A stretch of DNA of 58,007 nucleotides from an uncultured Bdellovibrionales bacterium (GCA_964387895.1 CAYLWX010000001.1:983-58989); one strand, 5' to 3'. Counted from the first letter of the stretch, positions 1 through 54,722 are shown. Notes: a model not told the origin generated them from the sequence alone. Numbers and translations are program-made.

Positions 1-135
1 CAAAAAGGCGGAAAAATCGCTGGCGATGCTAGACGAAAACTTGAACTTGAATCTGGAGGCAAGGTAATTTCAAAAGAAAATTACCTAACAACGCCCGAAA
101 ATACGAAAAGGATAAAAGGAAAAAATAAAAAATAA
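1..135 (+). CDS. 3' end of a gene cut by the window edge (hypothetical, Lys-rich tail)
   Basis: Frame 1 is open from base 1 to TAA at 133-135: QKGGKIAGDARRKLELESGGKVISKENYLTTPENTKRIKGKNKK*. It is not in the ORF track because its start lies outside the window. No family assigned. Confidence 0.35.
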   Translation, partial: QKGGKIAGDARRKLELESGGKVISKENYLTTPENTKRIKGKNKK

Positions 136-158
136 ATTTTCCCCCATTTTTATTAGGA

Positions 159-308
159 GGTAAAAAATTATTATTACATCATCTAACAAAGCGTATGCGG
201 TTCAGAAATTTTTCATCTATAATTTTAATAAGGAGTAAAAAATTCCTTCACCCAAATTTTTGCTTCATTTCATTACGCAAAAACTTCGCATACTCTTAAA
301 CGTTATAT
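159..308 (+). repeat. TTACATC hairpin element, copy 1 (attC-like skeleton)
   Basis: GTAAAAAATTA..TTACATC(174-180)-ATCTAAC(181-187)-AAAG-CGTATGCG ... CGCATAC-TCTTAAAC-GTTATAT(302-308). It has the same conserved flanks as copy 2 at 656-709 but a different, longer stem and loop. Confidence 0.6.
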
Positions 309-339
309 GAAATAAATTTTTACATTAATTTTTAATAAT

Positions 340-648
340 ATGGAATTAAAACAATTTATTAAAGAAGCACTATTGAGCATTACTGGTGGAGTTGACGAAG
401 CTAATAAAGAAAATAATCGATTTAAAATACTAGGAATTAAACATAATGAAAGCGGAATAGACGGCAATTACGCTGATTTTGATGTTTCTATTGTAGTTAA
501 CGAGGAGTCTGGTAGTGCGGTTGATGGCAAAGCTAAGGCATCATGGCTAAATGTTGTTTCCGCAGAAGTTGGATCAAAGATTGATCAATCGAGCGCATAT
601 CAAAATACTCAGCGTCTGACTTTTAAAGTTTATATTTCAGAAAAGTAA
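340..648 (+). CDS. small hypothetical protein, possibly Trypco2-like (trypsin-co-occurring domain 2)
   Basis: 102-aa ORF. An N-terminal helix (LKQFIKEALLSI) is followed by a beta-rich part ending QRLTFKVYI. This is the layout I recall for Trypco2-type small effector-associated domains; from memory only, not searched. Confidence 0.5.
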   Translation: MELKQFIKEALLSITGGVDEANKENNRFKILGIKHNESGIDGNYADFDVSIVVNEESGSAVDGKAKASWLNVVSAEVGSKIDQSSAYQNTQRLTFKVYISEK

Positions 649-655
649 AAAAATT

Positions 656-709
656 AATGTAAAAAATTACATCGCCTAACAAGGAATATCCGATTCCTAA
701 ACGTTGTGC
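656..709 (+). repeat. TTACATC hairpin element, copy 2 (attC-like skeleton)
   Basis: ATGTAAaaaaTTACATC-GCCTAAC(674-680)-AAGGAAT-atccg-ATTCCT-AAAC-GTTGTGC(703-709). It begins 8 nt after the stop of the 340-648 ORF. Confidence 0.6.
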
Positions 710-838
710 ATTAAATAAGGATGGTTGATAATCCAAGGAATAAAATTTTGCTTTTTCTTAATTATTTTAGAGGGGCATAAGGTGTCTTTTTTGCTTCTGG
801 AATCGCAAAAAAGACGATTTATCCCTAATTTTAAAAAT

Positions 839-1261
839 ATGAACAAAAAAATTTCGACAGGAGTCGCAGTCGGAATAATCATAATCATCTCTATAATCGT
901 CGGTGGGTATTTTTTGTTTGAATACAAAATAAACAATGCCGATGTAAACAATAATTTATTAAGCCAGAAAACAAAACAGGATCCAAAAACTAAGGATATA
1001 ACAGGAGAAAATTTAATGCAAATAAATTCATTTGAAAAGTGTGTGGAAAATAATGGCTTTAAAACAGGGGCATCTTTCCCAGGCATCTGTTATTATGAAT
1101 ATGAAAAAGGCCAATATAAAGTTTTTGTCGAACAAAGTGTTTGTGGTAATCATAAGTGCGAAAGTGTTAATTGCGAAGAAAGGGGCATTGATAAAATTGA
1201 TTGCCCTGTCCCAGAAAACATAAAAAATGTTCTATTGACTGCGAAAAAAAAGTTGCTATAG
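839..1261 (+). CDS. membrane-anchored, Cys-containing extracytoplasmic hypothetical protein
   Basis: ORF-track 725-1261 trimmed to the ATG at 839 (MNKKISTGVAVGIIIIISIIVGGYFLF), which gives a typical N-terminal signal anchor. The C-terminal part carries 7 Cys (CVENNGF..GICYY..CGNHKCESVNCEERGIDKIDC). Confidence 0.55.
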   Translation: MNKKISTGVAVGIIIIISIIVGGYFLFEYKINNADVNNNLLSQKTKQDPKTKDITGENLMQINSFEKCVENNGFKTGASFPGICYYEYEKGQYKVFVEQSVCGNHKCESVNCEERGIDKIDCPVPENIKNVLLTAKKKLL

Positions 1262-1268
1262 CAATGTT

Positions 1269-1336
1269 AAAACAAAATGATTTACATCGTGCCTCGGATA
1301 AGGCATAATTTAGCTTGAAAACCGACATTTTGTTTT
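1269..1336 (+). repeat. hairpin element with TTACATC core, copy 3
   Basis: A perfect 11-bp inverted repeat, AAAACAAAATG (1269-1279) / CATTTTGTTTT (1326-1336), encloses TTACATCG (1282-1289) and the inner hairpin TGCCT-cggata-AGGCA. It starts 8 nt after the stop of the 839-1261 ORF. Confidence 0.55.
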
Positions 1337-7970: not shown

Positions 7971-8066
7971 GAACCACTGATTCGCACTGATTAAACATGA
8001 TTTCACAGATTATACAAAAAATATCAGTGGAATCAGTGTAATCACGTGTTAATCAGTGGTTCTGAT
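7971..8066. repeat. array of inverted (C)ACTGATT / AATCAGT(G) heptamers
   Basis: GAACCACTGATTcgCACTGATTaaaCATGATTtcaCAGATT ... ATCAGTGgAATCAGTGtAATCACgtgttAATCAGTGGTTC. The outer arms GAACCACTGATT and AATCAGTGGTTC are perfect complements. The array spans the ppiB upstream region and the last codons of tsaE. Confidence 0.6.
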
Positions 8067-9814: not shown

Positions 9815-10945
9815 ATGAGCCTCGCGCCACAAGAACAGTTCAAAAAATTTCTGGAGAACTCCAAGGAGGTTCTCCTCTTTATTCCTGAAAACCCAAGCGG
9901 AGACGCCATAGGAAGCGCGTGGGCGCTTTATTTTTTTTTAGAGAAGCGGGGTATTTTACCTACCATCGCGTTTTCGCATACGGTGCCTCAAAAATATTCC
10001 TTTCTTCCCCAGCCAGTGAATATTTGCAGCGAGATTTCCGGCGCGAGAGATTTTGTGCTTTCTTTTGACACCTCGCGCAATAAAATTATCAACATCCGTT
10101 CGGAAGAAAAAGACAATCAGTATAATATCTACCTCACTCCCGAAAAAGGCTCTATTGACCCAAAAGACTTCTCTTTTATTCTGGCTAATTTTAAGTATGA
10201 CCTTCTTATCGTGCTGGACTCCCCGGACTTGGAACGCCTGGGCAAGTTGTATGAAGCTAATCCTGACTTATTTTTCGAAATTCCCATTATTAACATAGAC
10301 CACAAAAGCACCAATGAGAATTTCGGCCAGATTAATCTTGTCGACGTCATGGCTTCTTCCACCAGTGAAATACTTTCCCATATATTCGAGTCTGTGGATT
10401 CGTCCCTGATTGATGATAAAATATCCAGCTGTCTTTTAACCGGAATTATAAGCGCGACTGACAGTTTCAGGAAAAAGAACACGACCCCCCGCACGCTCCT
10501 TGCCGCCGCCGCGATCATGGATAAAGGCGCGAGCCAGCAGGAAATTATCCGCTGGCTTTATAAAACCCAGCCTCTTAATATTCTAAAGCTCTGGGGCCGC
10601 GTCATGGCGAAATTGAAATGGGATGAGGAACTGCGTCTGGTATGGTCCGAACTCACTATAGAAGATTTTGTACAAAGCCGGTCTACTCCGGAACATATTA
10701 CCTCTATCCTGGAAAAGCTCCAGGAAAATTACAGTGAAGGAAGGATATTTATGACGCTTTATGGCGCCACGCCGACTTCTGTCATGGTGCACATAAAAAC
10801 ATCCAACCCCGATGTAGCTAAAAAAATTCACGCTCACTTAGGCGGTACTATTCAAAGGGAACTTTTAGAACTTAGTTTCGAATCAGACAACATCTCGGAA
10901 ACAAGCCGGATGATTCTGCAAAAAATAAAAGAGATCGAGCTTTAA
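9815..10945 (+). CDS. DHH-family phosphoesterase (NrnA-like) with a variant DHH motif
   Basis: SGDAIGSAWAL, LLIVLDSPD, IINIDHKSTN (DHK in place of DHH) and GIISATDSFR blocks appear in the order expected for DHH/DHHA1 proteins. Confidence 0.7.
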   Translation: MSLAPQEQFKKFLENSKEVLLFIPENPSGDAIGSAWALYFFLEKRGILPTIAFSHTVPQKYSFLPQPVNICSEISGARDFVLSFDTSRNKIINIRSEEKDNQYNIYLTPEKGSIDPKDFSFILANFKYDLLIVLDSPDLERLGKLYEANPDLFFEIPIINIDHKSTNENFGQINLVDVMASSTSEILSHIFESVDSSLIDDKISSCLLTGIISATDSFRKKNTTPRTLLAAAAIMDKGASQQEIIRWLYKTQPLNILKLWGRVMAKLKWDEELRLVWSELTIEDFVQSRSTPEHITSILEKLQENYSEGRIFMTLYGATPTSVMVHIKTSNPDVAKKIHAHLGGTIQRELLELSFESDNISETSRMILQKIKEIEL

Positions 10946-11038
10946 AATACTTTATACCCTGTATCGTTTTTCTTAACCGGATCACTCCGGTAATTTGTGC
11001 ATTGGTATGAAATACCTTACAATGAAGAAGAAATTATA

Positions 11039-14000
11039 ATGTTATCCCTTATGATAAAAATACTGAAAAAGTCACTTTCTTCCAAATCAACGGAGGAGCT
11101 GCAAAAAGAAAAAGATACCCAGCAGGTTCTCTGGAAATTGCACCACCAATCAGAAGAAGAACAAGCATCCCAATACGCGGCAAAGATTAATTTTTCCTAC
11201 ATTGATACCAACCTTATCCCCATCAGCAATGAGAGTCTTAAGACGCTGCGGGAAGAGGAGTCCAGAAAATATTCCCTCGCGATTATTCAAAAAGACGGAA
11301 AACATGTGACTGCCGTTTCTACCGATCCTGCCACGCGGGAAACTGAACAATTTATCAAGAAGGTTGCCGAAGAAAATGATTGGGAAATGAAAGTGTTTGT
11401 AATTTCCCGTTATAACATGGAAAGGATTTGGGAGCGGTACAAGAAGATTATTTTTACTGATATCCTGACCCGGTTAACCGTTAACCTTACCAACGAAGAC
11501 TTAGCACATTTTGACCAGGAATTAAAAGACTTGATCGCGCTCAAACAAAAGATCAACACCTTGCCTACGACGCAGATATTGAATGTTATCATGGGGGGCG
11601 GCTTCAAACTGGGCGCGAGCGATATCCATATTGAACCGCAAGAACATGACCTACGTCTTCGATACAGAATTGACGGAGTGCTGCATGACGTAGCGCTCTT
11701 CCCTCTTGTTTTCTTTAAATCAATAGTATCCCGAATAAAAATGATGTCGGGAATGAAAATAAATCTCCGCGATATCGCGCAGGACGGTACCTTTGAAATA
11801 AACATAGTAGACAAAAAGATTGACGTCCGCGTCTCTCTTATTCCGGGAAATTTCGGAGAAAGCATAGTGATGCGGCTTCTTGATCCGGCCTCTATCGAGG
11901 TAGAGATAGAATATTTAGGCCTTCGGGGGCTGGCCTATGAAGAAATTCAAAAACAAGTAACTGCTCCGCACGGCATGGTTCTCACGACCGGACCCACCGG
12001 ATCGGGAAAAACTACCACTCTTTACGCCATTATTAACAAGCTTAACAACCCGGAAAAGAAAATTATTACCGTGGAAGATCCGATTGAATATGAAGTGAAA
12101 GGAATTTCTCAAACTCAGATAGAGAAGTCGCGCGGATATACCTTCGCGACCGGACTTCGGGCGATCGTCCGCCAGGATCCGGATGTGATTCTGGTAGGTG
12201 AAATTCGGGACGAAGAAACGGCCGACATCGCGGTGAATTCCGCGCTCACGGGCCACCTGGTGCTTTCCACGCTTCACACCAACAGCGCGGTGGGAACCAT
12301 CCCCCGCCTGATTGAGATGGGAGTAAAGCCTTCTCTTATCCCTCCATCCATGAACGCGCTTATTGGGCAAAGGCTGGTGAGAAAATTATGTGATTGCAGA
12401 GAGGAATATATCCCCGCCCGCGAATCAGTGGAATCTCTCAAGAAAGTGCTTTCCATTATTTCTCCCAAAGCCAGATTGAATATTCCCAAAGATATTTATA
12501 AACTCTACCGGCCCAGGGGATGCCAGAAATGCAACGGACTTGGCTACAAGGGCAGAATAGGAATTTTTGAAGTACTCACCATGAATGAAGAAATCGAAAA
12601 ACTTACGCTGGATTTGGCCACGGAAGCAGACATTACCATGGCCGCGCTGGAATCCGGCATGGTTACCATGCTCCAGGACGGAATTTTAAAAGCCATTGAA
12701 GGAACCACCTCTATCGATGAAGTACGGCGAGTTACGGGAGAAGGAGATTTTCTGGAAGAAATATACGAAAAACTCATGTCCCAGTCTCTTTCCCGCGGAT
12801 TTGTGATAGATAAGAAAAATTTTACCACTATCGAAAAAATATCCCATGATTTTAAAAAGTTCCACGCCACACTGGATAGCGCCGACACATCTGACATAAG
12901 CAAGCTGGTTCTCGTGGCGGCAGTTATGTTGGGAGTGGGAGACATTCATATAGAGCCGGGAGCGGAGCAGGTGGTAATCCGGTTCAGAATAGACGGGATT
13001 CTCCAAACAGTAGCCGCTATTCCTCTCAATGAATATCCCAACTTCCTGGGAGAAATTAAACTTTTAAGCGGCGTAAAGACAGAGGTGCGGGAAGGTGTGA
13101 TAGACAGCCGGTTTACTATTAAATTTTCCGAAGAGATAAAGAATATTCAGGAACGGTCAGTAGACGTACGGGTGTCTATAATCCTGGGAGGATACGGAGA
13201 GACAGTGGTGCTCCGTATTCTTAATAAGTCATCCGTAAAACTGGACGTGCGCACGCTGGGAATACGAAAGCAAAATCTGGACAAAATTTTGGAGCAGTCT
13301 AAAAAACCTCACGGAATTATCCTCAACACCGGCCCCACCGGATCAGGAAAAACGACTACCCTCTACAGCATCTTGAACATACTTAATAAACCGGAAGCAA
13401 AGATCATCACCGTGGAAGATCCGATTGAATATCAAATTGAAGGCATCCTGCAAACTCCGGTCAACGAAAAAGACGGCTATACCTTTGCCACCGCCTTGCG
13501 TTCATTATTACGCCAAAATCCGGATATTTTAATGATCGGGGAAATCCGAGACGCCGAAACCGCGCAAATCGCCGTGCAGTCCGCGCTCACGGGACACCTG
13601 GTGCTTTCCACTATTCACACCAATGACGCCGCCGGCGCGGTGCAAAGAATGCTCAATATGGAAATTTCCCCCACGGATATTGCTTCCGCGGTAAACGCGT
13701 TTATTGCCCAAAGACTCGTTAGAAAATTATGTGAATGTAAGAAAAAAATCAAGCCGTCGCCTGAAGAAAAATTAAAAATAGACCAGCTTTTGAAAACTAT
13801 CTCTCCTAAATCCGGCGTAGTTATTCCAAAAACAAGCGCTATCTACGCCCCCAAGGGTTGCGACAAATGCAATGGTCTTGGTTACAAGGGCAGAACCACG
13901 CTTTCCGAAGTACTGGTAATTGATCGCCCCCTCCAGGATCTTATCACCCGCGGAGCCATCACTTCAGAACTCCAGGAAAAAGCCGTGGAGTCCGGCATGA

Positions 14001-17539: not shown

Positions 17540-20215
17540 ATGTCTCACTATACAAAATATCTCTTCTTTTTCTTACTTCTTATCCCTTCTCTCTCCTATG
17601 CCGAAACTGCTGATCACCTTGTCATCTCTGAAGTAGCCGCTGGTATAGGAAGCGCAAATAATGAGTTTGTTGAAATCTATAATCCGACTGCTGACGAAAT
17701 AAACATAAAAGAATCCGGCATAAAATTGAATATTGCAAATTCTTCTGGAAAGATTACCTCTAAAAATATAACCGCATGGAACAATACTACTATCAAGCCT
17801 CACGGCTTTTTTTTATTTGGAGCAGGAAATGTAAATATCTCTTTTGACGCTACTTACAGTAGCGGTTCTATTACCGGGATCGGAGGCATAGTTATCACCG
17901 ACAAAGATAATATAGTAATCGATAAAGTAGCCTGGGGAGAAAAACCGCCCCACGTAAAACTTCCGCCTGTTTCAGCCTCTGAATTCCAGGGGTTTGAAAT
18001 TGATCAACCCGGAGGGATGGACACCGATAAATCTATCGAACGAAAGGCTGGGAAAAATTCTACCTTGGAATCTATGGTAAGCGGGGAAGATGTTGCTCTT
18101 GGAAATGGATGGGACAGTGATAATAATAACGAAGATTTTATATTACGGTCCGTGGTTTATCCTCAAAATTCTCTTTCCCTCCGGGAGCCGGAACCAGAAG
18201 AAGAGCAACCCGGCCCTCCTGATGACCCCGCGCCACTACCGCCGCCTGCTCCGGAAAATAAAGACGAAGAGCCAAAACAAAAAATCTATCCGCATGAAAT
18301 CAGACTTAGTGAACTTCTTCCCGATCCCAAAGGAAGCGACGAGACGCTGGAGTTTATTGAACTGGAAAATTATGGAGAAAGAGAAACAGATCTTACCAAC
18401 TGGAGCATTCAGGACGCAAAAGAAAACGAAAATCAACAAGAAACTGTCCATACATTCACGCTTACTCCCTCCTACTGCGCCGCCAGATCAGACGCGTGCA
18501 AAATTCCTGCCGGAGAATTTTTTGTGATGTACAGCCGGGATTACTCCGTAAAAAACCTTACGCTCAATAATACTCAAGGTGATACGGTTCGGCTTCTTAA
18601 TCCTCAGAATACCATAATAAACACCGTTTCCTACGCAGAAAAGAAAGTCAAAGAAGACCATTCTTACGCGTTGAATAATGCAGAATGGCAATGGACCTCC
18701 ATACTTACCCCGGGAAAGAAAAATCAGTTTCCCGCCATTTCGGAAAACAAAGTCTCGCCGGAACCCACAATCCAAATTTCTTATTCGTCCAACATACATT
18801 TCAATGAAATTCTGCCGAACGCAAGCGAGGAATACATTGAGCTGTACAATAACAACAATAAAGCCCTGGATCTTTCAGGATGGATTCTGCGCGATGCTTC
18901 AAAAACAGGAAAATATATGTTGCCAAAGAACACCATTATTGCGTCCAGGGGCTTTCTTGTTATCACAAAGAAAGAATTCAAATTCGCGTTAAATAATTCC
19001 GGAGAGGAATCAGTATTTTTATACAACCCTCGCGCAGAACTTGTTTCGTCCGTCTCTTACAAAGGTAGCAAAAAAGATGTTTCTTACAACTTTGACGGTT
19101 CCTTCTGGCGATGGAGCCGTTTTTTGACTCCCGGAGCAGAAAATAAATTCCCCGCGCCGTTGAGGGTTAAAATAAAAAAACCGGAACGAGTGTATCGGAA
19201 CATTCCCGCTTCTTTCGAAGCCGACACTTCAAAAGAAGCGAAAATAACATGGAACTTTGGAGACGGTCATAAGAGCTATCAGTTTTCCGCGCGTCATACG
19301 TATACAAATACAGGCGCATACGAAGCCAGCGTTAAAGTTTCAACGGCAGAGGATTTTTTAGAAAAATTTCTCGTCACCGTGGAAGACTTCCCGGAAATTA
19401 AAGTAAAAATTTCCGCCTTTTCGCCTAACCCCAAAGGAAATGACACGGAACTGGAATGGATTGAAATTGAAAATAATTCCAAACAAAAAGTCAATCTTAA
19501 AAATTGGAGCGTCGCCACCGGATGGGATAAGTTGATCAATCATCCCATTAAAAAAGACTTCGTCATCAAACAGGGAGAATCAAAAAAATTAACCCGCAAA
19601 TTCGCTAATTTTACCCTGCAAAATAAGAAATCCAAAATTGAACTACGCTACCCAAGCGGAGAAACCGCCCATTCGGTAAAATATAAAAGCGCGGACACAA
19701 TCGCGGACGATATGGTGTATCAAAAGGGCAGGAAAAAATGGAAATGGATCGCCGCGGCCGGCGCTTCAAAAGATAAAAAAAATAAAAACGCTCCTGCCGA
19801 AAAAGATACTACTCTCGCGTCAGAAACCGCTCCATCGGAAAATATACCGCCTGCTTCTACTACACAGACCGTCCTGTCTCCAGACGAAAATATATCCGCG
19901 GAAGCTTCTGCCACAAATTTAAACAGCGCCGCTCTCCGGGAATCATTTGGATATTCCGAATCACCGGAATGGAAAGAGAAAAAAGAGCGAACCGCGGCGT
20001 TATTGGACGGTATGGGCATATGGCAATATGTCCCCGCGAAAAAACAAACAGAACTGATTAATAAACTGCTATCTATAAAAACTATTTACGCCCAGGATGA
20101 AATTTATGTATTTACCAGTTCCGCGCCGGAAGAACATTACGCGGTTAAGTTCGTAAAAGAATCAGGAAGAGATATAAATTATTGGCTGGCAAAAATTGTT
20201 AGAAAGCTGTTTTGA
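17540..20215 (+). CDS. secreted protein with four lamin-tail domains (LTD) and one PKD domain
   Basis: Signal peptide present. LTD-like starts recur four times: LVISEVAAG..NEFVEIYNPT, IRLSELLPDPKGSDETLEFIELENYG, IHFNEILPNASEEYIELYNNN..LSGW, and ISAFSPNPKGNDTELEWIEIENNS..LKNW. The PKD-like block is ITWNFGDGHKSYQFSARHTYTNTGAYEASVKV. Ends with TGA. Confidence 0.85.
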   Translation: MSHYTKYLFFFLLLIPSLSYAETADHLVISEVAAGIGSANNEFVEIYNPTADEINIKESGIKLNIANSSGKITSKNITAWNNTTIKPHGFFLFGAGNVNISFDATYSSGSITGIGGIVITDKDNIVIDKVAWGEKPPHVKLPPVSASEFQGFEIDQPGGMDTDKSIERKAGKNSTLESMVSGEDVALGNGWDSDNNNEDFILRSVVYPQNSLSLREPEPEEEQPGPPDDPAPLPPPAPENKDEEPKQKIYPHEIRLSELLPDPKGSDETLEFIELENYGERETDLTNWSIQDAKENENQQETVHTFTLTPSYCAARSDACKIPAGEFFVMYSRDYSVKNLTLNNTQGDTVRLLNPQNTIINTVSYAEKKVKEDHSYALNNAEWQWTSILTPGKKNQFPAISENKVSPEPTIQISYSSNIHFNEILPNASEEYIELYNNNNKALDLSGWILRDASKTGKYMLPKNTIIASRGFLVITKKEFKFALNNSGEESVFLYNPRAELVSSVSYKGSKKDVSYNFDGSFWRWSRFLTPGAENKFPAPLRVKIKKPERVYRNIPASFEADTSKEAKITWNFGDGHKSYQFSARHTYTNTGAYEASVKVSTAEDFLEKFLVTVEDFPEIKVKISAFSPNPKGNDTELEWIEIENNSKQKVNLKNWSVATGWDKLINHPIKKDFVIKQGESKKLTRKFANFTLQNKKSKIELRYPSGETAHSVKYKSADTIADDMVYQKGRKKWKWIAAAGASKDKKNKNAPAEKDTTLASETAPSENIPPASTTQTVLSPDENISAEASATNLNSAALRESFGYSESPEWKEKKERTAALLDGMGIWQYVPAKKQTELINKLLSIKTIYAQDEIYVFTSSAPEEHYAVKFVKESGRDINYWLAKIVRKLF

Positions 20216-20216
20216 A

Positions 20217-20225
20217 TGGTAAAAT
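20217..20225 (+). promoter_or_regulatory. extended -10 (TGgTAAAAT) 6 nt upstream of the 20232 ATG
   Basis: TGGTAAAAT at 20217-20225, a 6-nt spacer ATATGC, then ATG. No SD. Confidence 0.45.
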
Positions 20226-20231
20226 ATATGC

Positions 20232-20828
20232 ATGAAAAAACACTCTCCTCATTTTTCTCTAATACTGTCCCTGGTATTGGTATTTCCGGGATTTTTCTTT
20301 TTCCTCACTCCCGCAACTCACGCTGAGTGCGACATCAGACCATGGGCCGACCAGTACATGGATGATCTTTACGCGTATTCCACTTTTGGATTAAGCAAGC
20401 CGAATCTAGTCATAGAAACCGGCAAGCTGGCTCAAATGAACCAGGGCGAAATAAGCCAGTATGGCATTTCTAAAAAATCGAATAAGAAATATTACATCGG
20501 CGCGTATACGGACGGAGACACTATCGGAATATACCAGAAGCTCTTTTCTTCCTATAAAAAATGTGACAAAGTTGCCAAAAGTAAACTGCGCGCCATGATC
20601 GCGCATGAATACACTCACTACATAGATGGAAGCTCATACGGGCTTAGCCGCTTGTCCGGTCTTATTGAAACTGCCAATTATGAAAAAACCGCCATTATCG
20701 GGGAACATACGCTTGCAAAACTCGTCTGGAATAAATCCATCAACCCCACGCGGAATCTTACTTCTCGGGAGAAAAAAACAGACGCAGTAACGTTGAGGAA
20801 TTACTTCAGAAGCCGGAGAGGAAATTGA
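20232..20828 (+). CDS. secreted putative zinc metallopeptidase (HExxH)
   Basis: Signal peptide MKKHSPHFSLILSLVLVFPGFFFFLTPATHA. HExxH motif in MIAHEYTHYIDG. No further family assignment. Confidence 0.6.
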   Translation: MKKHSPHFSLILSLVLVFPGFFFFLTPATHAECDIRPWADQYMDDLYAYSTFGLSKPNLVIETGKLAQMNQGEISQYGISKKSNKKYYIGAYTDGDTIGIYQKLFSSYKKCDKVAKSKLRAMIAHEYTHYIDGSSYGLSRLSGLIETANYEKTAIIGEHTLAKLVWNKSINPTRNLTSREKKTDAVTLRNYFRSRRGN

Positions 20829-20890
20829 TTTTAGTTGATTAGTTACGTAGTTATATGAAATATGCTTTTCTTTTTACGGCTAACGCCTTA

Positions 20891-20921
20891 CACTTTTCTA
20901 TAATGAACAAATTTTATTTTT
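20891..20921. repeat. left inverted repeat of the island
   Basis: CACTTTTCTATAATGAACAAATTTTATTTTT. Its reverse complement, AAAAATAAAATTTGTTCATTATAGAAAAGTG, matches 24268-24298 apart from 2 mismatches. Confidence 0.85.
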
Positions 20922-20996
20922 AATTATTTGAGGGGGTATGTGGTGTTTTCTTCCGCTTCGCTCCAGAAAACGATTTATTTATAATTTTTTAAAAGC

Positions 20997-21002
20997 TATA
21001 AT
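20997..21002 (+). promoter_or_regulatory. -10 box TATAAT 6 nt upstream of the methyltransferase ATG
   Basis: TATAAT at 20997-21002, spacer CAAGAT, ATG at 21009. No SD. A second TATAAT lies at 20980-20985. Confidence 0.45.
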
Positions 21003-21008
21003 CAAGAT

Positions 21009-21755
21009 ATGTCGGATATAACAAAATTCATAAACAAAATAATCTGCGGGGATACGGTTGAAATAATGAAAAAAATGCCGGACGGATCGGTTGATTTAAT
21101 TGTGACTTCACCACCTTATAACCTTAAAAACTCTACTGGCAATGGTATGAAAGACGGCCGAGGCGGAAAATGGGCAAATGCCGCTTTGCAAAAGGGCTAC
21201 TCACATTACAACGATAATATGCCACACAAAGAATATGTTAAGTGGCAAAGAAATTGTCTCACGGAAATGATGAGATTGATTCCTGAAGATGGAGCAATTT
21301 TTTACAATCATAAATGGCGCGTTCAAGCTAATTTATTACAAGATCGCCAAGATATTGTGAGTGGGTTACCCGTCCGTCAAATTATTATTTGGAGACGTGC
21401 CGGTGGACTGAATTTTAATGCTGGTTATTTTTTGCCCACTTATGAAGTAATCTATTTAATTGCTAAACCAAAATTCAAACTTGCGCCGAAAGCAAACGCT
21501 TACGGCGACATTTGGGAAATACCACAAGAAATGAAAAACGGACATCCAGCACCTTTTCCTGTTAAACTCATTGACCGGATAATTTCATCAACGAACGCAA
21601 AAATTATTTTAGATCCATTCATGGGTTCTGGAACAACTGCTATATCAGCAATAAATTTTAATCGTAATTATATTGGGATTGATATTTCTCCGGATTATTG
21701 TGAGTCAGCAAAAAAAAGGATAAAACAACATCAATCGCAAGCTAAACTTTTATAA
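21009..21755 (+). CDS. beta-class DNA methyltransferase (N4-cytosine or N6-adenine), type II R-M
   Basis: Motif IV DLIVTSPPYNL is near the N-terminus and motif I ILDPFMGSGTT near the C-terminus, which is beta-class order. Partnering with a BcnI/MvaI-like nuclease suggests m4C. Confidence 0.9.
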   Translation: MSDITKFINKIICGDTVEIMKKMPDGSVDLIVTSPPYNLKNSTGNGMKDGRGGKWANAALQKGYSHYNDNMPHKEYVKWQRNCLTEMMRLIPEDGAIFYNHKWRVQANLLQDRQDIVSGLPVRQIIIWRRAGGLNFNAGYFLPTYEVIYLIAKPKFKLAPKANAYGDIWEIPQEMKNGHPAPFPVKLIDRIISSTNAKIILDPFMGSGTTAISAINFNRNYIGIDISPDYCESAKKRIKQHQSQAKLL

Positions 21756-21757
21756 CT

Positions 21758-22552
21758 ATGACAGATCAAATTATCTACACAAAACCGGCTCTAATCGAAA
21801 AGTTGAAAGAAATTTCTGCAATGAGATTTGTGCCAAACGCGCGAAAAGGAAATGCCGGAGGTATCGGCAACACTCTTGAAGATTTACTTGGAATTAAGGA
21901 AAACAACCTACCAATCCCAAACGCCGCCGAATGGGAATTGAAAGCTCAACGTTTGAATTCAACATCTCTCACGACACTTTTTCATATTGAGCCCTCGCCA
22001 CGAGCAATCCGCTTTGTACCGCAAGTTTTATTACCTTTTTACGGCTGGGCACACCAAGAAGATGGCAAAAAATATCCAAAAGGCGAAATGAGTTTCCGAC
22101 AAACTATTCACGGCAATTCATGCAGTGATCGTGGCTTTAAGGTTGTCATTGATCGTAAGGAGCGAAAAATTTTAATTTCGTTTGATTCAAAATGCGTAGA
22201 CAAAAGGCACAAAAAGTGGCTACAACAAGTTAAAAAGCATGTTGGCCTTAGTGAATTAAATCCACAACCATATTGGGGCTTTGATGATTTAGAGCATAAA
22301 GCCGGAACAAAACTACTCAATGCCTTTTACGTACAGGCAGAAGTAGAAATCAGGCGCAAAAAAGAATTTTATCACTATACAAAAGTAATGATGTTACAGA
22401 AGTTTAGTTTTGAAGGATTTTTAAAAGCATTGGGGGAAGGTAAAATTCTCGTGGATTTTGACGCACGCACTGGTCATAATCACGGAACAAAATTTAGAAT
22501 GAGGCAGGATTGTTTGCCTATGCTTTACGAAAAACAATCAATAATAATTTAA
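21758..22552 (+). CDS. type II restriction endonuclease, MvaI/BcnI-like
   Basis: Blocks GNTLEDLLGIKENNLPIPNAAEWELKAQR...SLTTLFHIEPSP and EFYHYTKVMML...VDFDARTG..HGTKFRM match my recollection of BcnI (GQILERQFGVQENN..GEFELKG..LTLFH; FHFTKAYML; RGPHLRI). It lies 2 nt downstream of the MTase. Confidence 0.7.
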   Translation: MTDQIIYTKPALIEKLKEISAMRFVPNARKGNAGGIGNTLEDLLGIKENNLPIPNAAEWELKAQRLNSTSLTTLFHIEPSPRAIRFVPQVLLPFYGWAHQEDGKKYPKGEMSFRQTIHGNSCSDRGFKVVIDRKERKILISFDSKCVDKRHKKWLQQVKKHVGLSELNPQPYWGFDDLEHKAGTKLLNAFYVQAEVEIRRKKEFYHYTKVMMLQKFSFEGFLKALGEGKILVDFDARTGHNHGTKFRMRQDCLPMLYEKQSIII

Positions 22553-22568
22553 TAATATTTAAAAACAT

Positions 22569-23597
22569 ATGAGCAAAATTGATCTAATTAAAAAAATCGA
22601 AGCAAAAAGAAATTCAAAAGTAATAACCTATTTAACAAGCGACCGGCCGGGTCCTCTTAACGCAAAAATTGCTGGCGACATTATACCAATAATTAGTCAA
22701 CAACTACGAAAAATTGGCAAGGTTGAAAATATTGATTTATTTATTTTCAGCCAAGGTGGCGATACTATGGTTCCATGGCGATTAGTTTCCATGATAAGAG
22801 AATACTGCACTAAATTTTCTGTTTTAATTCCTTACAAAGCACACAGCTCCGCAAGCATGATTTCTCTAGGTGCCGACGAAATTGTAATGACGGATTTATC
22901 AGAAATTTCACCGATTGACCCGTCAACTGCAAATATTTTTAATCCTAGCGACCCACAAAATCCTCAAAATAAAATTCCGATTTCAGTAGAGGATGTTATG
23001 GCTTATTTTGATTTAGTAAAAAATAAATTTGGAATTAAAAATGACGAGGATTTAACTAAAATATTTAATAAGTTTGTGGAATCAAATCCGCAGATACACC
23101 CGTTAGCGCTCGGGAACGTTAACCGTACCCACAATTTAATTAGAGTTCTCGCAAAAAGATTGCTTAAGAGCCACAATAGCCCTATAGCAGAAAATGTAAT
23201 AGAAAAAATCGTGGATAACTTAACAGAAAAACTTTATTCACATCAATATTACATAGGTAGAAAAGAGGCAAAAAATGATTTAAAAATTGACACTGTCGTT
23301 TTTGCGGATGACGAAACATCAAGATTATTAAGTGATCTGTATGAAGAATACCGAAAGGAAATGGGCCTAAATATAACAAGTTGGAGTCCTGAAGTAGAAT
23401 TAGGCACCGGAACCGCCCAGATTAAAAAAGACTATAAAATTGCTTACATTGAAAGCGTTGAACTATCAAACTATTTTCAGCTATCTATTGAATACAAAAA
23501 ACAACAGGTTAATATAACACAGCCAACACCACAAGGACCGATTCAAGTTCCACAAGAACAAATCGGATTTAGAATTGTTGATCAAGGCTGGAAATAA
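22569..23597 (+). CDS. SDH-family (serine dehydrogenase proteinase, ClpP/SppA fold) serine protease with an unassigned C-terminal half
   Basis: NIDLFIFSQGGDTMVPW...LIPYKAHSSASMISLGADEIVMTDLSEISPIDPS parallels the family blocks (hTpGG; AmSaGTliALaaDeIvM; LGPIDP). Residues from about 190 to 342 match nothing I recognise. Confidence 0.75.
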   Translation: MSKIDLIKKIEAKRNSKVITYLTSDRPGPLNAKIAGDIIPIISQQLRKIGKVENIDLFIFSQGGDTMVPWRLVSMIREYCTKFSVLIPYKAHSSASMISLGADEIVMTDLSEISPIDPSTANIFNPSDPQNPQNKIPISVEDVMAYFDLVKNKFGIKNDEDLTKIFNKFVESNPQIHPLALGNVNRTHNLIRVLAKRLLKSHNSPIAENVIEKIVDNLTEKLYSHQYYIGRKEAKNDLKIDTVVFADDETSRLLSDLYEEYRKEMGLNITSWSPEVELGTGTAQIKKDYKIAYIESVELSNYFQLSIEYKKQQVNITQPTPQGPIQVPQEQIGFRIVDQGWK

Positions 23598-23608
23598 CAG
23601 AAAGTTAT

Positions 23609-24210
23609 ATGGTTAATTTTTTAAACTCAGGTTTTTTCACAGGCTTAGCAACAATATTAACTGCGATTGTAGCAATTTTTTTGTATTACTGGGAGCAACG
23701 AAAAAAGAAACGAGACGCTGCAAAAATAATCATTCAGGAAATAAGAAGAGCCGAAGATTTAATCAGCGAATACAAAGAATGTGGCGGGTATAAATTTACA
23801 AAAAAAATAATTGCAACAAATAGCTGGGCGAAAATATTCATTATTTTGTTGGCGATTTAGCACAAGACGAGGTAGATAAAATAAGTACCTTGTATTCAAC
23901 TGGCGAATACCTTGATACCATAATTGCAAAAGTATCAGATCACGCTTTTGATGAACAGGTAAAATCATACGAAAGCGAAATTAAACAAATTGTTGCCGGA
24001 CTCCAAAATCCTATAACGAGCCAGCAGTCAACATCTAGCGGCGATCAATCGGGCGCTCAAGTAATCCCCAAAATTGTGCAAAGAGCAGTACCTGTAAAAA
24101 TTCAAATACCGCCGCCATGGAAAATATTATTAGACGAAATATCTTTTAATTACGAGCCGATTTATCATTCAAGTATTTGTGAAAAATTGAAAAAAATTGG
24201 CAAGATATAA
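23609..24210 (+). pseudogene. membrane-anchored hypothetical gene interrupted by a frameshift at an A-run
   Basis: ORF 23609-23860 (frame 2, N-terminal TM) and ORF 23890-24210 (frame 1) form one reading unit. Frame 1 is already open from 23824 and overlaps the end of frame 2. One extra A in GCGAAAATATT (about 23829-23834) would read ...ATNSWAKNIHYFVGDLAQDEVDKISTLYSTGEY... Confidence 0.6.
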
Positions 24211-24223
24211 AATTCCAATAAGG

Positions 24224-24268
24224 TGTCTTGGCTTCGGGGCATTCACCCCCAGCCCCTACGCCAAGACA
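24224..24268. repeat. GC-loop hairpin (GGGCATTCACCCC family)
   Basis: Stem TGTCTTGGC (24224-24232) / GCCAAGACA (24260-24268). The loop contains GGGGCATTCACCCCCAGCCCCT. It lies immediately inside the right IR. Confidence 0.65.
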
Positions 24269-24298
24269 AAAATAAAATTTGTTCATTACAGGAAAGTG
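24268..24298. repeat. right inverted repeat of the island
   Basis: AAAAATAAAATTTGTTCATTACAGGAAAGTG. It is followed by the short palindrome GTTCCG-ctaaga-CGGAAC. Confidence 0.85.
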
Positions 24299-24434
24299 GT
24301 TCCGCTAAGACGGAACAAATATAATATATGCCGATACGTTAAATAGAAAACTATGAAAACATTTCTCTTTCCTATTCAACCAGTCAATCGCCTTGAGTTT
24401 CAATATTCAAAATGATAGTATTAGTTTGAGATAA

Positions 24435-24440
24435 TAATAT
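24435..24440 (+). promoter_or_regulatory. -10-like TAATAT 6 nt upstream of the yebC ATG
   Basis: TAATAT, spacer CATTTT, ATG at 24447. No SD. Confidence 0.35.
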
Positions 24441-24446
24441 CATTTT

Positions 24447-25215: not shown

Positions 25216-25290
25216 AATTTCCAATTCCCAAATCCCAATTTCCAATAAATGTCCAAAATTTTGGAAATTGGATATTGGAAATTGGAAATT
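25216..25290. repeat. long imperfect AT-rich hairpin built from GGAAATTGG units
   Basis: AATTTCCAATTCCCAAATCCCAATTTCCAA (25216-25245) pairs with TTGGAAATTGGATATTGGAAATTGGAAATT (25261-25290): 30-nt arms with 3 mismatches and a 15-nt loop. Confidence 0.75.
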
Positions 25291-25320: not shown

Positions 25321-25866
25321 GTGTTAATAAAAAATACCCCCCTGGATAATCTTCGCGTTCTTGGTATAGATCCTGGTACTGCCATCACTGGATGGGCCGT
25401 AATAGAGCAAAAAAATGGCGCAGTGTCTTCCGTGGCGCATGGTCATATCGCCACGGATGCTTCCATGAGTGATTTCGAAAGACTGTGGGAAATTTCCCAA
25501 CAACTGAAGAAAATAATTTCTCTCTACCAGCCAGCAGAAGCAGCCATAGAAAAAGTATTTTTCTTTAAGAATGAGAAGACAGTCATTGAAGTGAGCCAGT
25601 CCAGAGGAGCAATCGCATTGACACTGGAGCAGCATCATGTTAAAGTTTTCGGTTACACTCCGCTCCAAGTGAAACAATCAGTGACCGGTTATGGCAGAGC
25701 GAACAAAAAACAGGTACAGTATATGGTGAAAAGTATTTTACGCCTTAACGCGGTACCTAAACCGGATGACACCGCTGACGCGATTGCGATAGCAATATGC
25801 CACGCGCATAGCAGGAAATATATCATGGAACATGAAGCACATAACATAGAACAAAATTTAAAATAA
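25321..25866 (+). CDS. ruvC: crossover junction endodeoxyribonuclease RuvC
   Basis: VLGIDPGTAITGWAVIE...GYGRANKKQVQYMV...PDDTADAIAIAICHA. GTG start at 25321. Confidence 0.9.
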   Translation: MLIKNTPLDNLRVLGIDPGTAITGWAVIEQKNGAVSSVAHGHIATDASMSDFERLWEISQQLKKIISLYQPAEAAIEKVFFFKNEKTVIEVSQSRGAIALTLEQHHVKVFGYTPLQVKQSVTGYGRANKKQVQYMVKSILRLNAVPKPDDTADAIAIAICHAHSRKYIMEHEAHNIEQNLK

Positions 25867-25931
25867 CTTGTTCCATGTTTTATGTTATGTGTTTTATGTT
25901 TTAACCTCAATAACCCATCTAACCACACTTT

Positions 25932-32807: not shown

Positions 32808-32929
32808 AAATCCGAGCACGAAATTCTAAACAATATCAAAATTAAAATACTCAAAATTCAAAACGTTTCGAATTTTATATTTTTGTTATTTGGATTTATT
32901 TAGGATTTAGAATTTCGTGCTTGGGATTT
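32808..32929. repeat. long imperfect inverted repeat (MITE-like hairpin)
   Basis: AAATCCGAGCACGAAATTCTAAA (32808-32830) pairs with TTTAGAATTTCGTGCTTGGGATTT (32906-32929). GGATTTA-type units surround the right arm. Confidence 0.7.
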
Positions 32930-43716: not shown

Positions 43717-44842
43717 TAGTCTGCCGTATCTCGTTATTTTTTTTCTCCCTGCCTATTTGCTGAGGGTAGTTATATTAGGGATTCCCACTAATGTATTTGA
43801 AATTTTGGTAGTTTTTCTTTTATCACTTCAATTATTGGACAAAAAGCGCGGGAAGCGGTTTCTTGCGGTAGCAATGCAACATCGAGAATATATGCCGCCT
43901 GTAATCATGATTTTTTTAGGGCTATTCGTTTCTATGAGTATGTACGGGGGTTATGCCAGAGGACTGGGGGTTATAAAGGGGTGGTTTATTATTCCAATTA
44001 TTACGTTTATTTTGCTAAAAAGTACGGTTGCCCCGGAAAACAGAAAATACGTGTTTATCGCGCTCTATTGGTCTTCTTTTGTAGTTGCTTTTACAGGGAT
44101 TTTTTATTTTTTTCAAGGCAGTCTTACATATGATGGACGGTTACAGGCATTTTTTAATTCTCCCAATTATCTGGCTATGTATCTTTCGCCGGCCGTGATT
44201 ATTGGGGTAACTTTTTTTGAAGAACATAAAAAAGTATATCTATTGTCCCTGGGAGTTATTGCGATGGCACTGTATCTTACCTTTTCTTATGCTGCCTGGA
44301 TTGCCTTACTCTGCGCGCTGACGGTAAGCGTAATCGCGGTCAGAAAGAGTATATTTTTTAAAAAAATATATGTCCTGGTGTTTATAGCTATGGTGGTTCT
44401 GGTTTCTCAGCGCGGAGCTGGTAAGATGAATGATCTTCTGGAGTTAAAGGAGAGATCTTCGCTTGCTTCCCGGATTATGATTTGGAAATCTTCCGTGAAA
44501 ATCATCTCTGATTACTGGATGTGGGGAGTTGGTCCCGGAAATTTCCAGGATACCTACCTTTACTACCAAAAATATTTTTCTCCGTATTTAGAATGGGCGG
44601 TTCCTCATCCTCATAATGTGTATATGGCGTTCTGGCTTCAATCCGGTATAGTGGGTCTTGCAGGTTTTTTTTGGCTTCTTTGTGTGTGGGTAAGGCGCTA
44701 TTTGGAATCAGAAACGACTATTGATCCAGCGTTACGAAGTATCATGGCGGGAATCATGGTTTATGCCCTATTGCACGGCATGGTGGATACCACCTATTTT
44801 AAAAACGACCTCGCAGTCGTCTTTTGGTTGGGCATTATATAG
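43709..44842 (+). CDS. O-antigen ligase-like membrane protein (second copy)
   Basis: Polytopic. GVGPGNFQ...PHPHNVYMAFWLQSGIVGL. The ATG at 43709 is preferred over the TTG at 43694. Confidence 0.7.
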   Translation: MNNSLPYLVIFFLPAYLLRVVILGIPTNVFEILVVFLLSLQLLDKKRGKRFLAVAMQHREYMPPVIMIFLGLFVSMSMYGGYARGLGVIKGWFIIPIITFILLKSTVAPENRKYVFIALYWSSFVVAFTGIFYFFQGSLTYDGRLQAFFNSPNYLAMYLSPAVIIGVTFFEEHKKVYLLSLGVIAMALYLTFSYAAWIALLCALTVSVIAVRKSIFFKKIYVLVFIAMVVLVSQRGAGKMNDLLELKERSSLASRIMIWKSSVKIISDYWMWGVGPGNFQDTYLYYQKYFSPYLEWAVPHPHNVYMAFWLQSGIVGLAGFFWLLCVWVRRYLESETTIDPALRSIMAGIMVYALLHGMVDTTYFKNDLAVVFWLGII

Positions 44843-44856
44843 TTTTTTTTCCTTGT

Positions 44857-44908
44857 CCTCCCCTCCCCGTCAGAGGCGGACGGGGAGAGGGATTGAGGGT
44901 GAGGGGTC
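44857..44908. repeat. GC-rich palindromic element (CCCCGT-loop-ACGGGGAGAGGG family), copy 1; likely bidirectional terminator
   Basis: CCTCCCCTCCCCGT-CAGAGGCGG-ACGGGGAGAGGGATTGAGGGTGAGGGGTC, between convergent genes. Its reverse complement shares 29 consecutive nt with 52834-52862. Confidence 0.8.
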
Positions 44909-52833: not shown

Positions 52834-52887
52834 GACCCCTCACCCTCAATCCCTCTCCCCGTTCGAGGCGGACGGGGAGAGGGAGGA
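52834..52887. repeat. GC-rich palindromic element, copy 2, in the gap between the two virB4 fragments
   Basis: GACCCCTCACCCTCAATCCCTCTCCCCGT-TCGAGGCGG-ACGGGGAGAGGGAGGA. The stem CTCTCCCCGT / ACGGGGAGAG is perfect. Confidence 0.8.
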
Positions 52888-52896
52888 CGAGGAAAA

Positions 52897-53583
52897 TTAC
52901 TTTATATCCAACTTGCCTATATCTCCTATTTCTGTCGAAATGAACACGTTTGGATTATATGAGTTGTATACTAATTCTATCAAATCCTGCGTCTGGAGGG
53001 GGGCCAAACGCAGTCCTATGCCGGAAAGACCGGCAATAACGTGGTCAACTCTCTGGAATAGCTGGTTTTTGTAGGTTTCAAAATTCTCTCGTTTATCCAG
53101 AATGTTTTTTTTAGGATTAAAACTATTCAATACATTGTTGAAAAATCCTTTTTTACTGCTTTCTATGGGTGAGAAAGGAATAATGATATAGAAATTTTTA
53201 TCCATAATATTAGAAACAGAAACAAGCTGGTTGATGAATTGCTTATACTCTGAAATTTGAAGTTTAAGAAGCTCGTTGTCCAGCTCCTTTGCCTTATCGT
53301 CAACGTATTTTAAATAATCCCCCATATTTATTTTTCGGGAGCTGATAAGAATTTGGAGGGGGAAATCCAGAGAGTTGAGAAAATTCTGGTATTGACCAAT
53401 GATAGCCTCTTGTTCATCAGTCGATTTGAGGTCGTAGTTAATCGCGGAAACTGCCAGAACCGCTCTCACTGAACCGTTTTTCAGCACAATGACATCTTCC
53501 TTGATTTCCAGCACGTCCAGGAGCTTCTGGGTGGCAGAAGTAGTAGAAGAACCGGAGAGTTTGTTCGAGTGGAGGGATTCCAT
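52897..53583 (-). CDS. VirB4 N-terminal domain encoded as a separate ORF
   Basis: LLDVLEIKEDVIVLKNGSVRAVLAVSAINYDLKSTDEQEAIIGQYQNFLNSLDFPLQILISSRK follows the N-terminal pattern of Gram-positive-type VirB4 proteins. It ends 113 nt upstream of the ATG at 52783. Confidence 0.65.
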   Translation of the reverse strand: MESLHSNKLSGSSTTSATQKLLDVLEIKEDVIVLKNGSVRAVLAVSAINYDLKSTDEQEAIIGQYQNFLNSLDFPLQILISSRKINMGDYLKYVDDKAKELDNELLKLQISEYKQFINQLVSVSNIMDKNFYIIIPFSPIESSKKGFFNNVLNSFNPKKNILDKRENFETYKNQLFQRVDHVIAGLSGIGLRLAPLQTQDLIELVYNSYNPNVFISTEIGDIGKLDIK

Positions 53584-54521: not shown

Positions 54522-54722
54522 TATTATATTGGTTTATGTTCTATTTGGATATTTCATTTTAGAACATCCAGACTTTGTTTTGTAGATTTTCTTTGATTCT
54601 ATCTTTTTTCAAGGTCGCAAAATGTGACCTTGAAAGTGAGTGAAATCATGTGTAATCAATGCGAATCAACAACTCGACACTATTTTACCATAACTTACTC
54701 TATTATCCGAAATTTTATATAA

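Follow-up and report, generated by a model that had tools for sequence, protein, structure and literature searches.

Analysis of a 58,007-nt stretch of DNA from an uncultured Bdellovibrionales bacterium (GCA_964387895.1, CAYLWX010000001.1:983-58989; hereafter the window) indicated that an island of four accessory genes at 20851-24338 is probably one gene cassette from a system of site-specific recombination that resembles integrons, stranded between a gene for a protein with an HExxH motif and yebC-ruvC, with a decayed copy of the hairpin site, here called H, that belongs to such cassettes. The evidence comes from a repeat family recovered from metagenomes, from the architecture and covariation of H, from arrays of H sites with a recombinase gene beside them, from natural breakpoints at GTT boxes, from relatives in which the locus is empty, and from the deletion of most of H in the window copy.

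The original prediction, made from the sequence of the window, had described two 31-bp inverted repeats enclosing four genes, and its description of the locus held up well. The 31-mers at 20891-20921 (+) and 24268-24298 (-) match at 29 of 31 positions in inverted orientation, they are the only two copies in the window, and 100 dinucleotide-preserving shuffles of the window produced no such repeats. Pfam, PADLOC and three-frame translation confirmed the enclosed genes as those for a DNA methyltransferase, a BcnI/MvaI-like restriction endonuclease, an SDH-family protease and a frameshifted membrane protein, and the Pfam scan confirmed the flanks, where the HExxH protein has a weak M48 match below the cut-off. 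As had been reported, no target-site duplication was found beside the 31-mers. The short palindrome noted to their right is also real (GTTCCGctaagaCGGAAC, 24299-24316), but it is a conserved, covarying part of the repeat arm rather than a feature of the flank. A proposed comparison of composition found the island to be poorer in G+C (0.357 in 20851-24338 vs 0.417 in the remaining window) and in G+C at third codon positions (0.27-0.33 in the cargo genes vs 0.41-0.49 in their neighbours).

A search for further copies of the 31-mer, also proposed at the outset, revealed a large family. A scan of a metagenome collection with the 21-nt core of the repeat recovered at least 120 contigs, with about 50 dataset identifiers among the 80 matches listed, and almost all of these contigs have the whole 31-mer unchanged or with a difference at a single position. 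The system appears to be widespread in groundwater and sediment metagenomes; the same 21-mer gave one chance match in IMG/VR, in a giant-virus bin, with nothing conserved outside the 21-mer. Forty-two pairs of 31-mers in "+ then -" order enclose 0.5-4.8 kb of unrelated cargo that falls into 64 protein clusters, including restriction-modification (R-M) genes (Tsp45I, MvaI/BcnI, MutH-like and C5-methylase systems), Mrr, a NERD-UvrD-TOTE protein (968 aa, in a cassette of L154 at 10451-13357, -), an EPSP-synthase-like enzyme, epimerases, GNAT, YibE/F, an MFS transporter, a Na/Ca exchanger, a radical SAM enzyme, an S49 peptidase, DprA and an ADP-ribosylglycohydrolase. Pfam scans over the at least 120 loci detected no transposase or recombinase in 40 representatives of the largest cargo clusters from the 42 cassettes, and no transposase among 10 neighbouring proteins. 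The expectation that the 31-mer would be tied to differences in gene content was borne out by this comparison of cargo and by the context polymorphisms described below.

Conservation among these copies runs outward from the 31-mer, which forms the inner part of an arm of about 75 nt. The conserved unit reaches about 40 nt beyond the 31-mer on each side, so that the functional boundaries do not lie at the outer ends of the 31-mers; extended inward, the two window arms have no further similarity to each other. The arms fall into two classes, each tied to gene polarity. At the 5' end of the cargo the order is GTTATATGAAAT-ATGCTTTTCTTTTT-small hairpin-31-mer with TATAAT, followed by a leader module, i1; at the 3' end are the same 75 nt or so, mostly with TGTAAT, followed by a compound hairpin GTCTTGGC...GCCAAGAC, module i2. 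Among distinct arms, 59 of the 61 at gene 5' ends have A at position 10, and 30 of the 39 at gene 3' ends have G there. The stem of the small arm hairpin covaries (GTCTCGC/GCGAGAC, GTTCCGC/GCGGAAC, GGC/GCC), as does the stem of i1 (GTTTTCT/AGAAAAC vs GTTTCC/GGAAAC), which is conserved beside the 5' arm in 61 distinct copies. A G tract in i1 varies from 4 to 18 nt among copies, with a mode of 6 (e.g. L106:4999-5030 and L149:86-110), and since such tracts are prone to slip in replication, cassette expression might be phase-variable. A small open reading frame (ORF) in the leader was considered and dropped, as its frame is not conserved between copies. The 5' arm could be a promoter and the 3' arm a weakened copy of it joined to a terminator, an idea we hold weakly on account of the TATAAT/TGTAAT polarity, or the arms could be binding sites or folding aids for recombination. 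Rfam has no family that matches the arms or H.

Beyond the 3' arm, and in many loci also upstream of the 5' arm, lies H, which is 100-215 nt long. Its elements are, in order, ..ACATC-NNNN-AAC, a single base, the 11-nt arm L'', a stem-loop that covaries, TCCACCCATATTT, another stem-loop, AAAC, L' (the complement of L''), AAAC and GTT-NNNNN-GAAAT. An integron attC site is built in the same way, and some H sites have the canonical boxes GCCTAAC / GTTAGGC. Among 46 distinct H sites the AAC/GTT pairs hold in 41-46, and the L''/L' helix is 98% paired, a figure that is partly built in because one arm was located by a complementarity search, whereas its register to AAC/GTT is not. Both sides have changed in 7 of the 11 base pairs of this helix (for example, CG in 25 sites and GC in 17, or CG in 18, UA in 17 and AU in 5), and when the partner is slid by 1-3 columns as a control, pairing is 16-45%. 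This covariation points to selection for pairing and would be compatible with single-stranded DNA, a cruciform or RNA; H may act as folded single-stranded DNA.

A profile of H detected as many as nine sites on one contig, all in the same orientation and at intervals of 0.5-2.5 kb, as in L124 (seven), L128 (nine) and L129 (an integrase and then five), while a 763-kb contig has two exact 21-mer matches (L106, L156), inside arrays of five and four H sites. Among the fetched loci, the protein family that recurs most often is a tyrosine recombinase of 268-282 aa, found in 15-18 loci at 32-68% identity, and for four of five of these recombinases the best NCBIfam model is NF040815 (XerA/integron-integrase). 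Its gene is divergent from the array, and 75-112 nt separate its start codon from the first GTT box. Where the first cassette begins, the sequence is of the type TTCGTATA..A|GTT-NNNNN-GAAAT, and the five bases after GTT vary by cassette. The original prediction had looked to a transposase or recombinase flanked by the same repeats; the associated enzyme is instead this recombinase, adjoining cassette arrays. It seems probable that it catalyses strand exchange at G|TT.

Three natural polymorphisms place the breakpoints. Loci L135 and L170 are 99-100% identical except for one extra cassette of about 870 nt in L135. In L170 the second H site is followed by G|TTATATGAAAT, and in L135 by G|TTAGGCGAAAT (G|TTAGGCG), an ORF and a new H. 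This H is the extra cassette's own site and carries the box CGCCTAAC; it has a 5' box ..ATCGCCTAAC and ends at its 3' side in ..AC G|TTATATGAAAT. Loci L138 and L169 hold the same cassette (99.7% over 2986 nt) in different contexts; the homology starts at a GTT box 41 nt upstream of the 5' 31-mer and ends at a GTT box at the far end of H, beyond which the two diverge as GTTATCCG.. and GTTATGTG... A third cassette, shared by L142 and L164 (100% over 1974 nt), follows an H site in L142 and an attI-like sequence next to the integrase in L164, and its homology ends at a GTT box on the one visible side, as the L164 contig begins inside it. These comparisons indicate that the mobile unit runs TT..arm-leader-cargo-tail-arm-H..G. 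The inverted repeats had been taken for transposon-like termini, which the breakpoints contradict, lying at G|TT about 40 nt outside the 31-mer on the 5' side and at the far end of H on the 3' side.

Applied to the window, the anatomy of these cassettes gives the following parts.

20829..20850, + strand: left flank and presumed target, 22 nt from the HExxH stop codon to the junction, ending ...TTACGTA G.
20850..20852, + strand: left junction G|TT, with the cassette starting at T20851; homology to L099/L120 begins at 20850/20851 (G|TTATATGAAAT), and other cassettes break at the same box.
20851..20921, + strand: 5' arm (T->), with the R'-type box TTATATGAAAT, ATGCTTTTCTTTTT, the small hairpin GGCtaacGCC (20877-20890) and the 31-mer (20891-20921) in its TATAAT variant; near-invariant in more than 100 contigs.
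20922..21008, + strand: leader module i1, made up of an A/T-rich stretch, a run of G (20932-20936), a hairpin (GTTTTCT..AGAAAAC, 20945-20971), a tail rich in T and, just before the methyltransferase ATG, TATAAT.
21009..21755, + strand: cargo 1, Type II DNA methyltransferase of the N6_N4 (beta) class (Pfam PF01555, 1.5e-41; PADLOC MTase_II, 1.7e-117).
21758..22552, + strand: cargo 2, MvaI/BcnI-family Type II restriction endonuclease (Pfam PF15515, 2.6e-64; PADLOC REase_II, 7.9e-83).
22569..23597, + strand: cargo 3, SDH-type ClpP-like serine protease (Pfam PF01972, 1e-12); sister cassettes have another gene here.
23609..24210, + strand: cargo 4, a gene split by a frameshift near 23840-23890, whose product has a transmembrane helix at its N terminus (three-frame translation).
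24225..24267, + strand: module i2, the compound hairpin GTCTTGGC..GGGGC..GCCCC..GCCAAGAC right after the cargo, kept beside the 3' arm in 39 distinct copies.
24268..24316, - strand: 3' arm (T<-), with the 31-mer (24268-24298) in its TGTAAT variant and the small covarying hairpin GTTCCGctaagaCGGAAC (24299-24316).
24317..24338, + strand: H-site remnant, with AAA, then TATAAT as a relic of R'', then ATATGCCGATAC-G, which comprises the L' arm, a spacer and the first R' base.
24338..24340, + strand: right junction G|TT, with the cassette ending at G24338, placed by analogy with the L138/L169 and L135/L170 breakpoints.
24339..24446, + strand: right flank, presumed original intergenic sequence, with the yebC promoter region from 24385 conserved in relatives.

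On this comparison the window cassette would span 20851-24338, with G|TT at both junctions and most of its own H site deleted. Homology to the cassettes of L099 and L120 covers 20850-22551 and 24207-24319 and is interrupted at the stop codon of the endonuclease gene. What is left of H is 22 nt, compared with about 130 nt for a full site; the L'' arm and the whole centre (about 110 nt) are gone, and the H profile matches the remnant marginally (nhmmer E=1.8). In L099 and L148, H ends on its 3' side in the same sequence as the last 15 nt of the remnant, ATATGCCGATACGTT. Because its H site is missing one arm and the centre, the window cassette is probably no longer excisable. The suggestion that the island is the scar of an element was therefore right in part, for its H site is mostly deleted, but the scar is not that of a transposon.

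Relatives of the locus indicate that the island is an insertion in this lineage, placed by comparison to within about 150 nt. A search with the HExxH protein found four relatives only (L082-L085, 66-74% identity). In three of them (L082, L083 and L085) yebC is the next gene, 31-100 nt downstream, and in L084 a 35-aa gene fragment that starts like yebC lies 75 nt after the HExxH gene; the yebC promoter region of the relatives aligns to the window from 24385 onward. No copy of the repeat system, no H site and no integrase was found in these four loci or in more distant syntenic loci near yebC. The pre-insertion target would read ...ACGTAG|TTAAATAG..., with 20850 joined to 24339. A genome-collection scan with the HExxH protein found no relative, and one with YebC found relatives at no more than 60% identity, which keep the synteny LTD ... 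yebC-ruvC-7TM and are too distant for breakpoints. Elsewhere an identical HExxH gene was found only on a 1586-nt contig (L001, Logan SRR4343435) that equals window 19432-21017 and ends 9 nt into the methyltransferase gene, past the 5' arm and the leader, where there could be an assembly break at the repeat or a strain-variable junction. In L003, L004 and L006 the interval from the LTD-protein gene to yebC is 0.4-5.3 kb and holds differing genes, with no H sites or integrase, and this interval seems to be variable for other reasons too.

These features can be arranged into a simple model. A circular cassette, a presumed intermediate, would run from the cargo end through i2, one arm, H, the other arm and i1 to the cargo start, together one long palindrome, and integration at the G|TT of the downstream box would split it. 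The TATAAT arm and the leader, with its G tract and hairpin, would then come to stand before the cargo, and the TGTAAT arm, preceded by a hairpin, behind it, followed by H. On this model the splitting of the palindrome is why the cargo appears bracketed by inverted repeats with no target duplication. The simplest history would be that one cassette entered between the HExxH gene and yebC, at a G|TT that served as a secondary site, and then decayed. The original idea of a non-autonomous cargo element bounded by inverted repeats thus keeps its first half, in that the cargo is foreign, as the empty relatives indicate, and would be mobilised in trans; the repeats, on the other hand, are cassette-internal arms of an attC-like palindrome.

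Several observations weigh against this reading. The 58-kb window contains no detectable integrase homologue, and the recombinase would have to act on the window copy in trans. The enzyme of the related loci scores about equally as an archaeal XerA and as an integron integrase, both in NCBIfam and against solved structures; TIGR02249 matches it in two stretches, scoring 208-238 vs a cut-off of 265. In the alignment with VchIntIA (2a3v), query residues 177-199 face residues 174-239 of IntI4, 23 residues vs 66, so that about 43 are missing. These correspond to the IntI-specific additional domain near patch III that defines integron integrases (Messier & Roy, 2001, as cited in PMC9668308). Minimum-free-energy DNA folding paired the R and L boxes of an H site in the window at 173-314 but folded the L120 site without R/L pairing, and because folding was inconsistent between sites we relied on covariation, with the partly built-in pairing percentage noted above. 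All of the related loci (L086-L205) were fetched through the 31-mer, which limits what they say of how common arm-bearing cassettes are within arrays. A sigma-70 scan found no -35/-10 pair in either arm, which leaves the promoter role weakly based. Finally, the closest relatives have at most 74% amino-acid identity, which limits the resolution of the empty site to the 150 nt or so given above.

Other explanations account for parts of these data. The island could be the relic of a resident integron-like array that lost its integrase and its other cassettes, with no insertion of a single cassette at all. To the left of the junction, the 22-nt flank closes with ..GTA|GTT, as several attI-like sequences do, and loosely resembles the sequence ..TTCGTATA..AGTA|GTT beside integrases; a degenerate look-alike of an arm start (TTAAATAGAAAACTATG...CATTTCTCTTTCC) follows the right junction, and there is another array in the same genome, at window 1-1300. 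Set against this, those 22 nt between the HExxH stop codon and the junction provide no room for a platform, the four relatives are empty between HExxH and yebC, distant relatives have no H site or integrase near yebC, and the reconstructed empty region, at about 129 nt, is slightly longer than the 31-100 nt of the relatives. Given the empty relatives we regard a relic array as unlikely, and less likely than a solo insertion. A non-autonomous transposon, of the mobile insertion cassette (MIC) or miniature inverted-repeat transposable element (MITE) type, would have the 31-bp repeats as its terminal inverted repeats and its transposase elsewhere, and would fit both near-perfect inverted repeats around cargo that lacks a recombinase and the recurrence of the same repeats around many different cargos. 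It is nonetheless very improbable, since there is no duplication at the ends of the 31-mers, conservation and the context breakpoints reach some 40 nt past the 31-mer on one side and beyond a hairpin site of 100-200 nt on the other, the 40 cargo representatives and 10 scanned neighbours include no transposase, the recurrent neighbour is a tyrosine recombinase, and the two arms are non-equivalent, with a polarity fixed relative to the genes.

That fixed polarity, seen in 61 and 39 distinct copies at the 5' and 3' ends of the genes, is also hard to reconcile with an invertible or rearranging segment, in which the repeats would be invertase sites that flip the R-M block, or substrates for homologous recombination only. 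The repeats are indeed inverted and 3.3 kb apart, and the associated recombinase weakly matches models of tyrosine-type DNA invertases, but none of the cassettes occurred both ways round with respect to its arms or H, the arrays are co-oriented, and the polymorphisms are of presence/absence and changed context rather than inversion; we find this explanation scarcely credible. Nor do we give any more credence to the repeat being mainly a regulatory or RNA element (a promoter, a terminator or a small-RNA module) that accompanies accessory genes without being a recombination site, even with TATAAT in the 5' arm, mostly TGTAAT in the 3' arm, hairpins in i1 and i2 (the former covarying) and an H that covaries like structured RNA. 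Gene-content breakpoints fall exactly at GTT boxes, a recombinase is adjacent, and no Rfam family corresponds to the element. The repeat is also not a general intergenic motif, because there is one cassette and one small array in the 58-kb window and the copies on the 763-kb contig lie within H arrays. The arms may well regulate expression besides serving recombination, as the two roles are not exclusive. A stranded cassette that was inserted at a secondary site remains the reading that we favour.

Cargo 1 and cargo 2 of the window cassette are adjacent, belong to matching families and form a predicted Type II R-M pair, which is shared with the cassettes of L099 and L120 at 94-96% amino-acid and 88% nucleotide identity (95% amino-acid identity for the methyltransferase and 94-95% for the endonuclease). 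The gene after the pair differs among these sister cassettes, being PD-T7-4 in L099 (330-1010, -, 9e-87) and the gene for an HNH-like protein in L120 (1829-2518, +). The SDH protease had no PADLOC match, and the membrane protein, whose two halves (ORFs 23609-23860 and 23890-24210) are in different frames and readable as one frameshifted gene, had no match in Pfam or PADLOC. By analogy of position these two genes are candidates for an unknown defence function.

A second small array at the start of the window indicates, from its sequence, that this genome hosts the cassette system.

173..1261, + strand: second small array, with a full H site at 173-312 (profile match 173-321, nhmmer E 4e-16), a cassette at 301-712, a mini attC-like site and the next cassette (profile and sequence reading).

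The nearest H site to the R-M cassette is thus 20 kb off. The cassette at 301-712 has a 102-aa ORF and, beside the boxes, its own 20-nt inverted arms (302-333 / 649-680); the mini attC-like site at 662-712 is about 50 nt long and reads GCCTAAC...GTTGTGC, and the cassette after 712 begins with an i1-like leader and has an ORF at 839-1261. A gene that runs off the start of the window and ends at 135 may be a further cassette, and the array may continue upstream. Several of the YebC relatives are labelled as lineages of the Candidate Phyla Radiation (CPR; Spechtbacteria, Wildermuthbacteria and Falkowbacteria), from which we suggest that the host is probably a member of the CPR/Patescibacteria. 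An exact-protein look-up had neither YebC nor the 102-aa cassette protein on record.

Other repeats were found in the window. An inverted repeat at 7978-8006 / 54640-54668 (29 nt, 27/29 positions, TGATTCGCAYTGATTAMACATGATTTCAC) is as strong as the repeat studied here, with copies 46.6 kb apart in surroundings that have no extended similarity. Another, at 44836-44908 / 52834-52906, is 73 nt long and 77% complementary, and its G+C-rich palindromic motif CCCCTCCCCGT..GGCGGACGGGGAGAGGGA recurs in direct orientation as well (44860 / 52852); it could be a repeated terminator or represent another small repeat family. Paralogous neighbours at 11966-12576 / 13307-13914, with a spacing of 1341 nt, share about 75% DNA identity; their conserved stretch encodes ..CxxCxxxGYKGR.., a motif that we take to recall PilB/GspE-type secretion ATPases. 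Long A/T-rich palindromes at 25216-25290 (in the yebC-ruvC gap, with 30-nt arms of the unit TTGGAAAT), 25829-25900 (after ruvC, 25-nt arms) and 32812-32924 (52-nt arms) have no sequence kinship with the cassette arms.

Both the definition of integrons and the searches for them rely on an integrase with the additional domain and on a covariance model built from known attC sites. The literature reports integrons in Archaea and in many bacterial phyla, as well as many "integron-type" recombinases without detectable attC sites, and within the literature searched on integron-like arrays in CPR/Patescibacteria we found nothing on the present system. As far as that search goes, we tentatively propose that it could be an undescribed class of integron-like platforms, widespread in groundwater and sediment metagenomes and probably hosted by CPR/Patescibacteria, with a short XerA-like integrase and a polar shell of arms that travels with the site while the cargo is swapped. 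Integrase screens based on the IntI-specific domain would probably miss this enzyme, as it does not have that domain. If a Xer-like enzyme without the domain does recombine cassettes, then integron-type capture would be broader in mechanism and host range, extending to small-genome uncultured bacteria, and much of the flux of accessory and anti-phage genes there may use the system, considering a cargo that includes R-M systems, PD-T7-4 and a TOTE-type protein. The polar arms may bear on cassette expression and on the unresolved origin of attC sites on genes, and should new genes be recruited by the shell as a unit, it would give a tangible way to study the birth of cassettes.

Among known systems, MIC/MITE-like elements share with the window island inverted repeats around cargo and no recombinase inside, and are mobilised in trans by the transposase of an insertion sequence. 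Here there is no duplication, the repeats are not at the ends of the unit, which extends past them with asymmetric boundaries, no cognate transposase was found and no autonomous copy appeared among the 40 cargo representatives and 10 neighbours scanned from the at least 120 loci, and a tyrosine recombinase and arrays are present instead. The pdif (Xer) modules of Acinetobacter plasmids carry accessory or toxin-antitoxin cargo without a recombinase of their own, between inverted 28-bp double-stranded XerC/XerD sites that alternate in orientation. Small modules without a recombinase, inverted sites and an attribution to Xer-type tyrosine recombinases are common to both, whereas the present system has long co-oriented hairpin sites and a dedicated recombinase gene beside the array.

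The closest parallels are with integrons, among them the sedentary chromosomal integrons with their highly similar attC sites. Related loci of the present system, like integrons, have a divergent tyrosine recombinase gene (one that is not in the window) heading co-oriented arrays, hairpin sites with AAC / GTT boxes of the attC type, complementary inner arms and a variable centre, G|TT breakpoints, and diverse, defence-rich accessory cassettes without a recombinase. They differ in that the enzyme is about 270 aa and has no IntI-specific domain around patch III, in that H is often 100-215 nt with conserved internal motifs, and in that many cassettes have, beyond each outer box, an inverted and near-invariant arm of about 75 nt together with leader and tail hairpins. 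Arm-bearing cassettes may also carry a promoter of their own. To our knowledge, classical attC sites have no near-invariant arms or leader/tail modules. Classical integrons provide documented precedents both for solo cassettes, as single attC sites lacking integron-integrase (SALIN), and for insertion at GWT sites of the genome, or attG (Loot et al., bioRxiv 10.1101/2022.09.11.507474). The window cassette resembles these as a lone chromosomal cassette between ordinary genes, away from integrase and att sites, with a G|TT at both ends that fits the GWT consensus. It differs in belonging to a non-canonical system, in an attC-like site reduced to its 22-nt remnant, and in that insertion by the recombinase is presumed here. 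Seen beside these solo cassettes, the window island would be an ordinary outcome of its system: a solo cassette, stranded and in decay, and not a transposon of a new kind.

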